A DNA stretch of 63,988 nucleotides from Gammaproteobacteria bacterium (GTDB lineage: Bacteria; Pseudomonadota; Gammaproteobacteria; DRLM01), in NCBI GenBank assembly GCA_011375345.1, contig DRLM01000077.1:1-63988 (forward strand). Reading direction: 5' to 3'. A program made the position numbers and the translations under genes. The notes under the pieces are model-generated. The model was given only the letters and a program-made list of their open reading frames with translations, was not told the DNA's origin and made no database searches. This document shows positions 3,741-33,382 of the stretch, one piece after another. Numbering within the stretch: position 1 is the first letter of the stretch; every line of letters begins with the position of its first letter.

Positions 3741-4492
3741 GCGTGGAAGAAAAACCCCGCACCACCCACTTCGGCTACGAAGAAGTGCCGGTGGAAGAAA
3801 AAGCCCGCAAAGTGGGCGCCGTGTTTGATTCAGTCGCGGACCGCTACGATGTAATGAACGACTTGATGTCTTTGGGCATTCATCGCTGGTGGAAGCGGTT
3901 CACCATCGAGCTCAGCGGCGTGCACACCGGGCAACAGGTGTTGGACGTGGCCGCCGGCACCGGCGATCTCAGCGCCGAATTCGCCCGGCGCGTGGGAGAC
4001 AGCGGCCTGGTGGTGGCCACCGACATCAACGGCGCCATGCTGGGGCGAGGCCGCGAACGGCTGACCGACAAGGGCCTGGTGGGCAACATCGGCTACGTAC
4101 AGGCCAATGCCCAGTACCTGCCCTTCGCCGACGCCAGCTTCGATTGTGTCAGCATCGCCTTCGGCCTGCGCAACGTCACCGACATTCCCATGGCCCTCAG
4201 CAGCATGCACCGCGTGCTCAAACCGGGGGGCCGTTTGATCGTGCTCGAATTCTCCAAACCGGCGCTGCCGGGTCTGGGTCCGTTATACGACGCGTATTCC
4301 AAACTGCTGCCCGGCCTGGGCAAGGTGGTGACGGGAGATGCCGACAGCTACCGCTATCTGGTCGAATCCATCCGCATGCACCCGGATCAAAACACCCTCA
4401 AGGGCATGGTGGAGGCGGCTGGCTTTGGCCAGTGCGATTATTACAACCTGAGCGGCGGCGTAGTGGCCCTGCACCGGGGTTACAAATTGTGA
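3737..4492 (+). CDS. ubiE: Ubiquinone/menaquinone biosynthesis C-methyltransferase UbiE
   Basis: [48 protein letters not shown] motif [11 protein letters not shown], and C-terminal [10 protein letters not shown]. The GTG start overlaps the DUF971 stop (GTGA). The resulting 251 aa is the expected UbiE length. Confidence 0.95.
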
Positions 4493-28891: not shown

Positions 28892-29752
28892 CTAGATCAT
28901 CCCCTGGGCGCGCAAATGCTCCTTGGCCTGCAAAGCCAGCAAGGCCATTTCCAGCTCTTTTTCCCAATCGTAGGGATGGGCGGGGGGCAGGTAATCAGGC
29001 ACCGAAATATCAACGTAAGGAACGTCGGTGTAAACCTTGGTATAGCGGGTCTCTTCGATGCTGGGGGTGAGGTCGCCCCAGATTTCGTGGAACAAGTCCC
29101 TGGGCCGGATGGTGCCCCACTCATGGATCAGGGTGTAGTGCTCGGGCAAGTCGGTAAAGGCCTCGGGCACGCCGGTCTGGGGTTCGCCGGTCTCTTCGTT
29201 GATGTGTTGGGTATGCACGAAGACGATGAGCTTGGGCCGGTGTTTCACGATCTCCGGCGTGTAGTTTTTACCCGAAGGCATCCAGGAGGAGAAAGCCACA
29301 TCGAAAGCAAAGTCGATGGCTGCGATGGCCGTCTCCCGCATCTGGTAACGCTCGCGGTCGTAAAAATCGCGGATTTGATTGGGCTTGGCAGAAGGATCGC
29401 GCACGCCGATCACGTTGACCTCTTCCTGAGCAATCAAACTGCCGATGAAACCGTTGCCCGCGTGCACATCGCAAAACACCGGCGCTTCGGCCACTTGTCT
29501 GGCGTAAGCCACGATACGGCGTATCTCGTCCCGCAGGGGAAAATACGGCGCCACCGTGGGGCCGAATCTGGCAGGATCACGGTCGGGGTTACTGAACACC
29601 AGGTTGTGCAGCGGCAAGCCCTTGATGCGCTCGGCAAAAGACAAACTCTCATCCCAGGCCGGATGCTTGCGTTCCTGGAAATCGATAATGCGGTTGAACA
29701 TGTCTTCCGTAAAGGCTTCCATGTTACGCAGGGGTTCGAAGTGTTCGATCAT
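28892..29752 (-). CDS. Hypothetical protein with class-I methyltransferase-like Rossmann motifs
   Basis: VFCDVHAGNGFIGSLIA / VNVIGVRD / FDVAFSSWMP resemble SAM-methyltransferase motifs I, post-I and II, with HxGNG instead of GxGxG. It lies directly downstream of hemE. Start ATG 29752; GTG 29785 is an alternative. Confidence 0.6.
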   Translation of the reverse strand: MIEHFEPLRNMEAFTEDMFNRIIDFQERKHPAWDESLSFAERIKGLPLHNLVFSNPDRDPARFGPTVAPYFPLRDEIRRIVAYARQVAEAPVFCDVHAGNGFIGSLIAQEEVNVIGVRDPSAKPNQIRDFYDRERYQMRETAIAAIDFAFDVAFSSWMPSGKNYTPEIVKHRPKLIVFVHTQHINEETGEPQTGVPEAFTDLPEHYTLIHEWGTIRPRDLFHEIWGDLTPSIEETRYTKVYTDVPYVDISVPDYLPPAHPYDWEKELEMALLALQAKEHLRAQGMI

Positions 29753-29786
29753 CGTGACTCTGCTGCTCGAAAATGCGGTACGCACC

Positions 29787-30851
29787 TTAAGTGTGATACG
29801 GCTCGCTCAATTCATGCACCGCGTCCACCAACACTTTCACGTGCTCGGGATTGATGTGCTGGTGAATACCGTGCCCCAGGTTGAACACATGCCCGCTGCC
29901 CTTGCCGTAGGCTTGCACAATGGTGGCCACCTCACTGCGAATGCGTTCGGGGGAAGCGTAGAGCACGCAAGGGTCCATATTGCCCTGCAGCGCCACCCGA
30001 TCGCCAACGCGGGCGCGGGCAGCGCCGATGTCCACGGTCCAGTCCAGACCCAGTGCGTCACAAGCGGTGGCGGCCATGGCTTCCAGCCAGGCGCCACCGC
30101 CTTTGGTGAACAAAATCACCGGCACACGGCGGCCGTCGTTTTCGCGGCTCAGGCCGTCCACGATCTGGGCCATGTAACGCAGGGAGAATTCCTGATAATC
30201 CCGCGGGCTGAGCACACCGCCCCAGGTGTCGAAAATCATCGCGGCCTGGGCGCCGGCGGCAATCTGGGCGTTGAGATAAGCCGTTACCGATTGGGCGGTT
30301 TTGTCCAGCAAGGCGTGCAGCAGCCCGGGCCGGTCGAACAGCATGCCTTTGACGTGGGCGTATTCCTTGCTGCCGCTGCCTTCCACCATGTAAGTGGCCA
30401 GGGTCCAGGGGCTGCCGGAAAAACCGATCAAGGGCACCCGGCCGCGCAGTTCGCGGCGGATCAGCCGCACGGCGTCCATCACGTAGCGCAGCTCACTTTC
30501 GGGATCGGGCACGGGGAGTTTTTCCACGTCCGCGGCGCTGCGCACGGGGCGCTTGAATTGCGGGCCTTCACCGGCGACGAACTCCAGCCCCAAGCCCATG
30601 GCATCGGGCACGGTGAGGATATCGGAAAACAAAATCGCCGCATCCAGCTCGAAGCGCTCCAGGGGCTGTAAGGTGACTTCGCAGGCCAGCTCGGGGTTGG
30701 TGCACAGGTTCATGAAAGACCCGGCTTTTTCCCGCGTGGCGCGGTATTCGGGCAAATAGCGGCCCGCCTGGCGCATGATCCAAACAGGCGTGCGGTCCAC
30801 GGGCTGGCGCAGCAGGGCGCGCAGGAAACGGTCGTTTTTCAGAACGTTCAT
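29787..30851 (-). CDS. hemE: Uroporphyrinogen decarboxylase
   Basis: [50 protein letters not shown] is almost identical in pattern to E. coli HemE. Start taken at ATG 30851 rather than TTG 30860. Confidence 0.95.
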
Positions 30852-30915
30852 GGAGTCCAATTCTTATATGAAACTACCATAACAGCGGAAAATGAGTTAC
30901 GGCGGGAACCGGTGA

Positions 30916-31470
30916 CTAGCTCGTTGCTTCTGAATAGGCCTTTGCATCCAGAATAACGCCAAGCTTTTTATACAGCTTTGCCACTACATTTGCGCTGGCC
31001 ATAAAAAAGAAAGAGATTATGAAAACAATCGGCACCATCAACATCAACAACAAGGATCTTCTAACGATATGCCACATGGAAACCATGTGTAGCTGAGCAA
31101 CCATCTCTTCCACTTTCTTGCGAGCGCGCCGATCCAGTATCTCTTTGATGAGGTGTTCGACCCGCAAGGCGCTCCGGCTGATTTCGCCACGTTTCTGACG
31201 CGCCAGCATCATATACGCAACAACATGGATCCAATTCAGTTCATGTGCGAATCGGATATAGGTATTAAACATCTTTCTCAAGATAACATAGGCTTCACTA
31301 TCGTACGAAATCTCTCCATCGGAAGCTAAATCAAAAAGTGCATCGCGCAACTCAAAAAGCTGTTGGCGCGTTGAATCGATGACATATTGTTGCCACACCC
31401 AATAAAAAAATAAAAACCCCAGACCAAGCGTAAACAAAGCGAAAAAAGCGCTGATTTCAAGATCGCTCAT
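30916..31470 (-). CDS. Hypothetical membrane protein, AT-rich cassette ORF-C (184 aa; N- and C-terminal TM helices)
   Basis: ORF in an AT-rich island. GGAGG lies 7 nt upstream of ATG 31470. TM-like AFFALFTLGLGFLFFYWVW and LLLMLMVPIVFIISFFFMA flank a ~110-aa helical, charged region. No family recognised. Confidence 0.6.
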   Translation of the reverse strand: MSDLEISAFFALFTLGLGFLFFYWVWQQYVIDSTRQQLFELRDALFDLASDGEISYDSEAYVILRKMFNTYIRFAHELNWIHVVAYMMLARQKRGEISRSALRVEHLIKEILDRRARKKVEEMVAQLHMVSMWHIVRRSLLLMLMVPIVFIISFFFMASANVVAKLYKKLGVILDAKAYSEATS

Positions 31471-31640
31471 GCTTTGTCCTCCGGGCGGGTTTCACCTCGT
31501 GGAGTAAGACCACTTGACTCTCTGTTCGGGTCAAGCCGCTCTTCCAACTTTATAATCCGATCTTGCAAGTATTTCGTTTTACGACGGCGCAGCTCCCGCT
31601 CAAAAAGGCCGTACAACATAGACACCACTGCCAGGCCCAT
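31467..31640 (-). CDS. Hypothetical small membrane protein, AT-rich cassette ORF-B (57 aa, not in the ORF track)
   Basis: My own translation: MGLAVVSMLYGLFERELRRRKTKYLQDRIIKLEERLDPNRESSGLTPRGETRPEDKA. GAGG lies 7 nt upstream of ATG 31640. The stop overlaps the ORF-C start (ATGA). One TM helix plus a charged coiled tail. Confidence 0.45.
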   Translation of the reverse strand: MGLAVVSMLYGLFERELRRRKTKYLQDRIIKLEERLDPNRESSGLTPRGETRPEDKA

Positions 31641-31894
31641 TTACATGCCTCGTCGAAGCCCGACCAGAATCGGACAAAAAGGTCACCTTCCGCATCAATA
31701 TTGAGGTTCAAATCAGCGCTGGTGGCTCTCCCAGCGAAGGCATGAACGATATGCGCCAGGCCAAGAACGAAACTTATTGCAACCGCGGCTTTGATTCCGA
31801 ACATCAGAATACTGGCACCACGACCAACCAGCATCACCCAAAGATGAAAACGCTGCTCTCCGGAAAGTTGGTTGTCTTTTTTATTATCGGACAT
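31550..31894 (-). CDS. Hypothetical membrane protein, AT-rich cassette ORF-A (114 aa as drawn; 3' end uncertain)
   Basis: Starts 12 nt after the gltD stop. Has two TM-like segments (FHLWVMLVGRGASILMFGI, AAVAISFVLGLAHIVHAF). The last ~30 codons (CKWAWQWCLCCTAFLSGSC...) look like out-of-frame sequence and overlap ORF-B. Confidence 0.5.
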   Translation of the reverse strand: MSDNKKDNQLSGEQRFHLWVMLVGRGASILMFGIKAAVAISFVLGLAHIVHAFAGRATSADLNLNIDAEGDLFVRFWSGFDEACKWAWQWCLCCTAFLSGSCAVVKRNTCKIGL

Positions 31895-31906
31895 ACAAAG
31901 CCAACT

Positions 31907-33382
<1,476 letters not shown>

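Follow-up and report, generated by a model that had tools for sequence, protein, structure and literature searches.

A horizontally acquired two-gene membrane cassette between gltD and hemE of an uncultured gammaproteobacterium, with apparent homology to the transmembrane proteins of Rst_2TM_1TM_TIR

We analyzed the junction between gltD and hemE in contig DRLM01000077.1 (assembly GCA_011375345.1) of an uncultured gammaproteobacterium, the whole 63,988-nt stretch being referred to as the window, and found that it carries a horizontally acquired, accessory insert, a cassette of two genes, AB and C, that encode small membrane proteins. By homology, C and, less securely, AB appear related to the two transmembrane proteins of a three-gene anti-phage system, Rst_2TM_1TM_TIR, whose third component, a TIR protein, has no counterpart at this locus. 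The segment had been singled out from the DNA sequence alone (hereafter, the original prediction) as a candidate undescribed system of three membrane proteins. The structural and evolutionary statements on the cassette are made here with high confidence. As for its role, the best reading, which we judge just about probable, is that of a mobile, self-contained inner-membrane module of phage exclusion or abortive infection, probably disabled in this genome.

Foreign DNA at the gltD-hemE junction

The segment 30861-31906 has a G+C content of 46.7%, against a mean of 64.0 +/- 3.3% and a minimum of 55.8% for the other stretches of 1046 nt (z = -5.2), and is the lowest-G+C stretch of the 64-kb window. 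The abrupt drop in composition described in the original prediction was thus borne out, and its hand counts of G+C (25/60, 22/60 and 42/60) were reproduced exactly. Codon usage shifts toward A/T-ending codons, as had also been noticed, with G+C at third codon positions (GC3) of 0.51-0.53 in the open reading frames (ORFs) ORF-A, ORF-B and ORF-C of the cassette vs 0.75 in gltD and 0.79 in hemE.

The closest homologues of the window HemE, which are from uncultured Gammaproteobacteria, are only 84-87% identical to it, and the named relatives among the matches include Sulfurivermis and Thiohalomonadaceae. In the three nearest relatives by HemE identity (loci L018/L019, L020 and L021 in our numbering), the junction is empty, with the order gltB-gltD, 53-110 nt, hemE, and because of these empty sites, the cassette is an insertion. 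A check suggested with the original prediction, namely, whether the cassette is present with native-like composition in all relatives, accordingly leaves the foreign origin standing. The empty junctions of L018, L020 and L021 are located around 3890-4001.

Composition and alignment of the junction with these empty sites were used to delimit the insert. The GltD proteins of the three nearest relatives are 468 aa long and end in '...GILDYLGV*', and GltD of the more distant locus L005 ends in '...DYLGA*'. In the window, the native stop codon is lost, and the last native gltD codon, GTG (31958-31960), is followed by 16 AT-rich codons (31910-31957) and then by a new stop, the extension with its stop occupying 31907-31957 on the minus strand. 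Since the native gltD stop is absent and the 16 AT-rich codons belong to the inserted DNA, the insert spans about 30852-31957 (minus strand), next to the hemE ATG at 30849-30851; its right border can be given only approximately, as the intergenic sequences do not align. Thus, the stretch between gltD and hemE, together with the gltD stop codon, has given way to approximately 1.1 kb of foreign, low-GC DNA. The earlier placement of the insert start, 12 nt past the gltD stop, had to be given up, given that the inserted DNA reaches position 31957, within the annotated gltD. As judged from the alignment with the ends of the relatives' proteins, the 16-aa tail on GltD, the small subunit of glutamate synthase, is a creation of the insertion.

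In agreement with the original prediction, the ORF list, a tRNA scan and a repeat search yielded no integrase, transposase, tRNA or obvious flanking repeat. Specifically, there is no tRNA in the whole window, no integrase or transposase ORF at the insert and no integrase-sized ORF, and around the insert no convincing flanking repeat was found, only short matches that are probably due to chance. Among the latter, a 12-nt direct repeat with 10/12 identical positions (30899-30910 and 32007-32018) roughly brackets the insert. An Rfam search of the island gave nothing relevant, and a scan of 30600-32200 found neither a sigma-70-like promoter nor an intrinsic terminator. The insert qualifies as a genomic island by its empty site in close relatives and its deviant composition; mobility functions of its own were not found.

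Gene AB and its frameshift

The three co-directional ORFs of the original prediction are present on the minus strand (ORF-A, 31550-31894; ORF-B, 31467-31640; ORF-C, 30916-31470). However, comparison with homologues indicates that ORF-A and ORF-B are one gene, AB, split by a 7-nt deletion, so that the cassette comprises two genes and not three. This conclusion is drawn because the homologues have a single ORF, the DNA has a 7-nt gap and the match of the rebuilt protein to phrog_27816 is nearly full-length. At the AB position, L004, L005, L007, L009, L010, L015 and L022-L031 each carry one ORF of 122-161 aa, and homology runs in the frame of ORF-A to 'KWAW' and in the frame of ORF-B from 'GLAVVSMLYG...'. 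A MAFFT DNA alignment with L005, L004 and L007 places the gap at 31631-31637. The rebuilt AB (31467-31894, minus strand; about 144 aa) consists of the homologous portion of ORF-A (31631-31894) and ORF-B (31467-31637) and matches phrog_27816 at positions 20-121 of 121 (E = 1.6e-10), whereas ORF-B alone matched positions 70-121 only. The frameshift site (31625-31645, minus strand), identified in the DNA alignment and by three-frame translation, lies where AAATGGGCCTGG meets CAGTGGTG and lacks 7 nt compared to the homologues, as would be expected if a GGCCTGG tandem repeat had lost one of its copies.

It is improbable that the three ORFs are real as drawn, with a functional A/B split giving a genuine three-protein system in this lineage. 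ORF-B does have its own ATG (31638-31640) with a Shine-Dalgarno-like GAGG 7 nt upstream, all the conserved motifs are intact in the two halves, and membrane proteins split between helices can reassemble. Nevertheless, every homologue examined is a single ORF, and the last 26 aa of ORF-A as drawn would form an out-of-frame, Cys/Trp-rich tail with no homology. Moreover, the ATG of ORF-B derives from the Lys-Trp codons (AA-ATG-G), and together with the GAGG it is best explained as a by-product of the conserved Asp-Glu-Ala-Cys-Lys-Trp codons. Of the good Shine-Dalgarno sequences claimed for ORF-B and ORF-C, that of ORF-C stands (GGAGG, 7 nt upstream of the start), and the overlap of ORF-B and ORF-C by ATGA was confirmed. 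A programmed ribosomal frameshift between ORF-A and ORF-B was likewise considered and rejected, given that there is no slippery heptamer and the homologues are simply in frame.

AB has a pair of membrane helices separated by a loop of some 30 aa; after them come the basic residues RRRK, a further helix and the conserved tail 'DPNRxSSGLTxRGET'. Conserved across the family are 'AG(K/Q)(T/E)T' after helix 1, the basic stretch after helix 2 and a 'DPNR-SS-LT--G-T' tail. The single-sequence AlphaFold2 (AF2) model of AB is of low confidence (predicted local distance difference test, pLDDT, of 70) and was used only for the two-helix hairpin. The 7-nt deletion splits AB between the loop and the second membrane helix, and this copy of the gene, and of the cassette, is probably disabled or in decay. 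It might yet be functional if the assembly is wrong about the deletion or if the halves come together all the same.

Gene C

Gene C (30916-31470, minus strand; 184 aa) is intact and encodes a protein with one membrane helix at each terminus and, between them, a helical bundle of roughly 110 aa that is predicted to be cytoplasmic. The AF2 model of C, built with 18 homologues, is all-helical, with a pLDDT of 92.7 (helices 3-50, 59-73, 80-92, 94-109, 114-138 and 140-183). Arg35, Arg42, Tyr61, Arg65, Arg73 and His76 of the bundle are invariant, and the invariant or near-invariant residues of the membrane-proximal cytoplasmic helices further include Asp32, Phe39, Phe46 and Ser139. These conserved residues might serve to bind an anionic ligand or a partner.

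In the Protein Data Bank (PDB), no Foldseek match to the C model was found at E < 1, and none was found by sequence with the C-family profile. The only borderline Foldseek match (E = 2e-3, TM score 0.58) is to BFVD A0A1I9SC82, a 198-aa 'minor tail protein' of Mycobacterium phage PhancyPhin that may be a misannotated distant member of the C family. A search profile consisting of the window C and four close homologues recovered 2,633 clusters (50% identity) at E <= 1e-3 and 1,580 at E <= 1e-10, and nearly all of the best-scoring 150 proteins are about 170-200 aa in length. This large family is without a Pfam family or a solved fold. Searches of Pfam and NCBIfam with ORF-A, ORF-B, ORF-C and the rebuilt AB gave nothing above noise, with no Pfam match at E <= 1 for the three ORFs or at E <= 0.1 for the rebuilt AB.

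Relationship to the Rst_2TM_1TM_TIR system

None of the three ORF products was recognised in the original prediction, but models from PADLOC and PHROGs do match them. ORF-C matches the PADLOC model PDLC02977, '1TM-TIR' (E = 9.4e-10, 36.4 bits; residues 33-168 against positions 30-160 of 186), as do eight further members of the C family (E = 1.5e-8 to 0.02), and it matches phrog_13156 with E = 4.8e-25. The rebuilt AB matches PDLC02978, '2TM-TIR', weakly (E = 0.034, 12.5 bits), and AB of L005 does so with E = 0.0069; these two matches are co-linear, and the other AB homologues have no match to this model. The '1TM-TIR' and '2TM-TIR' models derive from a three-gene hotspot system of the P2-like phage AC1, which consists of a TIR protein and two transmembrane proteins and protects Escherichia coli against lambda, LF82_P8 and P2; its authors suggested that the TIR protein makes a nucleotide signal that activates the membrane proteins (Rousset et al. 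2022, PMC9122126). The system is called Rst_2TM_1TM_TIR in later surveys. From the profile matches and the gene order, we conclude that C is homologous to one of the two transmembrane proteins of this system and that AB is probably homologous to the other.

At the cassette itself, there is no TIR gene, given that gltD and hemE bound it and leave no further ORF, so the earlier statement that no partner enzyme adjoins it holds. Among the 98 neighbour ORFs of 16 related loci, no PADLOC TIR model matched at E <= 1e-5, and there was no TIR among the top 25 of the 72 Pfam families matched by neighbour ORFs. On this evidence, the cassette is best described as a TIR-less variant of Rst_2TM_1TM_TIR and, for that reason, is not wholly undescribed. 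The claim of an undescribed system therefore falls, the cassette apparently being the membrane half of a described one and its large family being already clustered in PHROGs.

Pairing, spread and recurrence of the cassette

With a profile of seven AB proteins, an AB ORF was detected directly upstream of C in every locus with upstream DNA, including ten IMG/VR viral contigs, apart from the exceptions given below. The pairing is also seen in Burkholderia P2-like phages, in a metagenome-assembled genome (MAG) of Ignavibacteriales and in several chromosomal contigs, and the pair is distributed across phyla. The Ignavibacteriales MAG was the one relative recovered by a close-family motif scan of 185,579 species, with one genome per species. 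A tblastn search with C against 50,697 phage records hit Burkholderia phages only, and a first viral scan with a close alignment gave no match.

In the first exception, L016, just a 43-aa C-terminal remnant of AB precedes C. This C homologue (L016:4876-5603, and also L017) lies between infC-rpmI-rplT-pheST and a cupin/MiaB-like gene, and L016 is, after the window, a second case of a decayed AB next to an intact C. In the other, a Leptospira interrogans plasmid (L032; NZ_CP043879.1, 3456-8471), C is partnered by a DUF2335 protein with two predicted membrane helices near its C-terminus, and genes annotated as DprA and DUF4041 lie 0.8-3 kb away. PADLOC matches among the 98 neighbour ORFs were ShosA, ShosT/PsyrA, PD-Lambda-1, PDC-S05, PDC-S57 and mad2; those to ShosA, ShosT/PsyrA and PD-Lambda-1 likely come from the DprA and DUF4041 genes of the Leptospira plasmid, which would make this locus a small defence island. 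In L015 (1418-2998), a 526-aa ORF without Pfam or PADLOC match lies directly downstream of AB and C and could be an alternative third component.

The prophage neighbours of the pair in the IMG/VR contigs vary and include a GH108 endolysin with a holin, a CHAP hydrolase, a Dit-like tail protein, gpS, NYN with a serine recombinase, HSDR_N and P63C. In the Burkholderia P2-like phages, the pair is located between the integrase and a HigBA-like toxin-antitoxin pair, near the genome end. Because its position in prophages varies, the pair behaves as a moron, a cassette carried as additional cargo. In all seven loci compared (window, L001, L004, L005, L007, L009 and L010), GC3 of the cassette is below that of the neighbouring host genes by 8-35 points (usually 10-30), so that it follows the host GC without reaching the host value.

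The same junction is occupied in two more distant lineages (L005:1-1291 and L001:1-1735), being empty in the three nearest relatives. The order in L005 is the gltD end (66% G+C), AB and C (44-45% G+C), a terminator and the hemE start; in L001, whose host has 37-43% G+C, C is followed by hemE. The window C is 50% identical to C of L005 and 46% identical to C of L001, and HemE of L001 is 74.6% identical to the window HemE, which makes this lineage more distant than the relatives with empty sites. No recombinase, tRNA or repeat that would account for the recurrence at the junction was found. Two explanations remain, namely, that the cassette is an ancient resident that was lost repeatedly or that the junction captured it more than once. 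An L005-like donor of the window flanks was considered and rejected, given that nucleotide identity over 93 nt at the end of gltD and 99 nt at the start of hemE gives L005 no advantage over the empty-site relatives.

The occurrence of the cassette at one junction in the window, L005 and L001, along with a GC3 that loosely tracks the host GC, is what could be expected of native housekeeping genes of unusual composition. We find this explanation scarcely credible, and the empty sites largely refute it: the genes are absent in all three nearest relatives and have a close relative in 1 species-representative genome among 185,579, the native gltD stop was destroyed by the insertion, and the first gene is frameshifted.

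Both flanking genes are core genes that lie outside the cassette. The hemE gene (29787-30851, minus strand) encodes a protein with a Pfam URO-D match, and the native portion of gltD (31958-33376, minus strand) belongs to the gltB-gltD-hemE synteny seen in L018-L021. Just downstream of hemE, a 297-aa ORF (28892-29785, minus strand) has no Pfam match; a gene of 287-294 aa occupies the same position in all three nearest relatives, marking it as a core gene of unknown function in the clade.

Proposed function and alternatives

The original prediction likened the cassette to small foreign membrane modules of defence, lysis or toxin-antitoxin type; its foreign, accessory nature and its defence association ('1TM-TIR' match) stood and the three-gene composition did not. 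We propose that AB and C would form one inner-membrane complex, which we infer because their start and stop codons overlap and AB is the gene immediately before C in almost all of the loci examined. By the positive-inside rule, the C bundle and the AB tail would be cytoplasmic, on account of RRRK after AB helix 2 and RRS before C helix 2. The complex might act alone, either through an infection-triggered collapse of the membrane (abortive infection) or by blocking genome entry (superinfection exclusion). Without a promoter or terminator of its own, the cassette would be transcribed only by read-through from gltBD, and the 7-nt deletion would disable this copy. The new trigger and mechanism expected in the original prediction find no support, as nothing in the analysis speaks for newness.

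Taken by itself, a defence or exclusion function of the pair has, in our estimate, a little less than an even chance, and several observations weigh against it or against parts of the proposal. The defence role depends on homology to one validated three-gene system, in which the contribution of the membrane proteins is itself only hypothesised, and AB scores no more than 12-15 bits against '2TM-TIR', a weak match. A defence island is clearly seen at only 1 of the 16 loci, the Leptospira plasmid, and most chromosomal contexts (window, L005, L001, L010 and L016) are core genes rather than defence islands. Two viral loci, L022 and L030, lie near lysis genes and leave room for a lysis-related role. 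A weak TIR match could sit outside the 25 of 72 Pfam families, the PADLOC result being the stronger negative. Finally, the frameshift could be an assembly artefact.

The lysis-gene neighbours speak for a mobile membrane module without a defence role, such as a holin/antiholin-like regulator of lysis timing in prophages or a moron for membrane stress or fitness. In L022, a GH108 endolysin and a holin-like gene with three TM helices are found 1.6 kb away from the pair, and in L030, the pair is flanked by small membrane proteins on one side and a CHAP hydrolase on the other; such a role would also suit two small, helical, membrane-embedded proteins with no enzyme attached. Nonetheless, we regard it as unlikely. 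The prophage position ranges over the tail module, the integrase end and the lysis region, no endolysin is near the chromosomal copies, the window included, and no holin or lysis family in Pfam, PHROGs or NCBIfam matches, the sole matching functional annotation being the defence model. The holin/antiholin reading of the original prediction thus finds no support here.

The tight coupling of the genes, with ATGA overlaps in the window and in L005, would also suit a selfish membrane toxin-antitoxin (addiction) pair, with one membrane-damaging protein and a second that neutralises the first, and this would account for both persistence and mobility. The pair is mobile across phyla and adjoins another toxin-antitoxin pair in Burkholderia phages, and the decay of AB next to an intact C in two loci (window and L016) would fit the loss of a toxin. 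However, there is no match to a toxin-antitoxin family, the two partners, in contrast to those of typical type II pairs, are both integral to the membrane and similar in size, and the decay of AB equally fits the loss of any non-essential accessory system, which makes an addiction pair very doubtful. The reading we prefer is still that of a phage-exclusion or abortive-infection module.

A broader and tentative extension, with the chances rather against it, is that the pair of AB and C, and not TIR, would be what is conserved at the centre of a large class, so far without a name, of systems for phage defence or superinfection exclusion, with about 2,600 clusters and a minimal two-gene cassette in prophages, plasmids and core-gene junctions. 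The TIR protein of AC1 would then be a late add-on, and the Arg/His-rich bundle of C a sensor or gate with the AB tail as its partner.

For this genome, the outcome is a small foreign cassette, probably inactivated, and an altered 3' end of gltD; in addition, the insertion probably put hemE under read-through from gltBD. The broader interest lies outside the window, in a pair that is very widespread, has no Pfam annotation and was seen without a TIR partner at the 16 related loci. Should the membrane pair prove active without TIR, the logic proposed for AC1, where a TIR signal switches on membrane effectors, would need revisiting, and a widespread, unannotated two-gene module would join the minimal defence or exclusion systems. 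Defence-finding tools expect a TIR gene for Rst_2TM_1TM_TIR, and for this reason the pair is probably not called by the current ones.

Comparison with known systems

Holin/antiholin cassettes resemble the pair in consisting of small helical proteins with multiple transmembrane segments, which in prophages are sometimes near endolysins, as in L022 and L030; they differ in that the pair has no holin family match, no endolysin is present in or near the island and the prophage position is variable. The likeness to lambda RexAB and to the membrane effectors of CBASS, Pycsar and Thoeris is one of analogy only, through small membrane proteins that prophages carry and that are held to make the membrane depolarised or permeable upon infection. 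No sequence or fold match connects them to AB or C: a RexB match was obtained for one homologue only (E = 0.09), the PADLOC '2TM effector' model matched AB of L005 only (E = 0.028), and no SLATT or related Pfam model matched ORF-A, ORF-B, ORF-C or the rebuilt AB.

With phrog_13156 (C) and phrog_27816 (AB), the matches are significant and near-full-length, and the same phage-borne protein pair is involved; PHROGs assign no function to either, and the window copy is not in a recognisable prophage. The closest known relative appears to be Rst_2TM_1TM_TIR. The window cassette differs from it in the lack of a TIR gene, in its chromosomal position between core genes and in its frameshifted first gene, and the identity to the E. 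coli proteins is low, the comparison being made through the PADLOC models only. The two share the homology of C to 1TM, the gene order 2TM-1TM and the strand, AB having a weak, co-linear match to 2TM, and relatives of AB and C occupy moron loci of P2-like prophages, as does the AC1 system.

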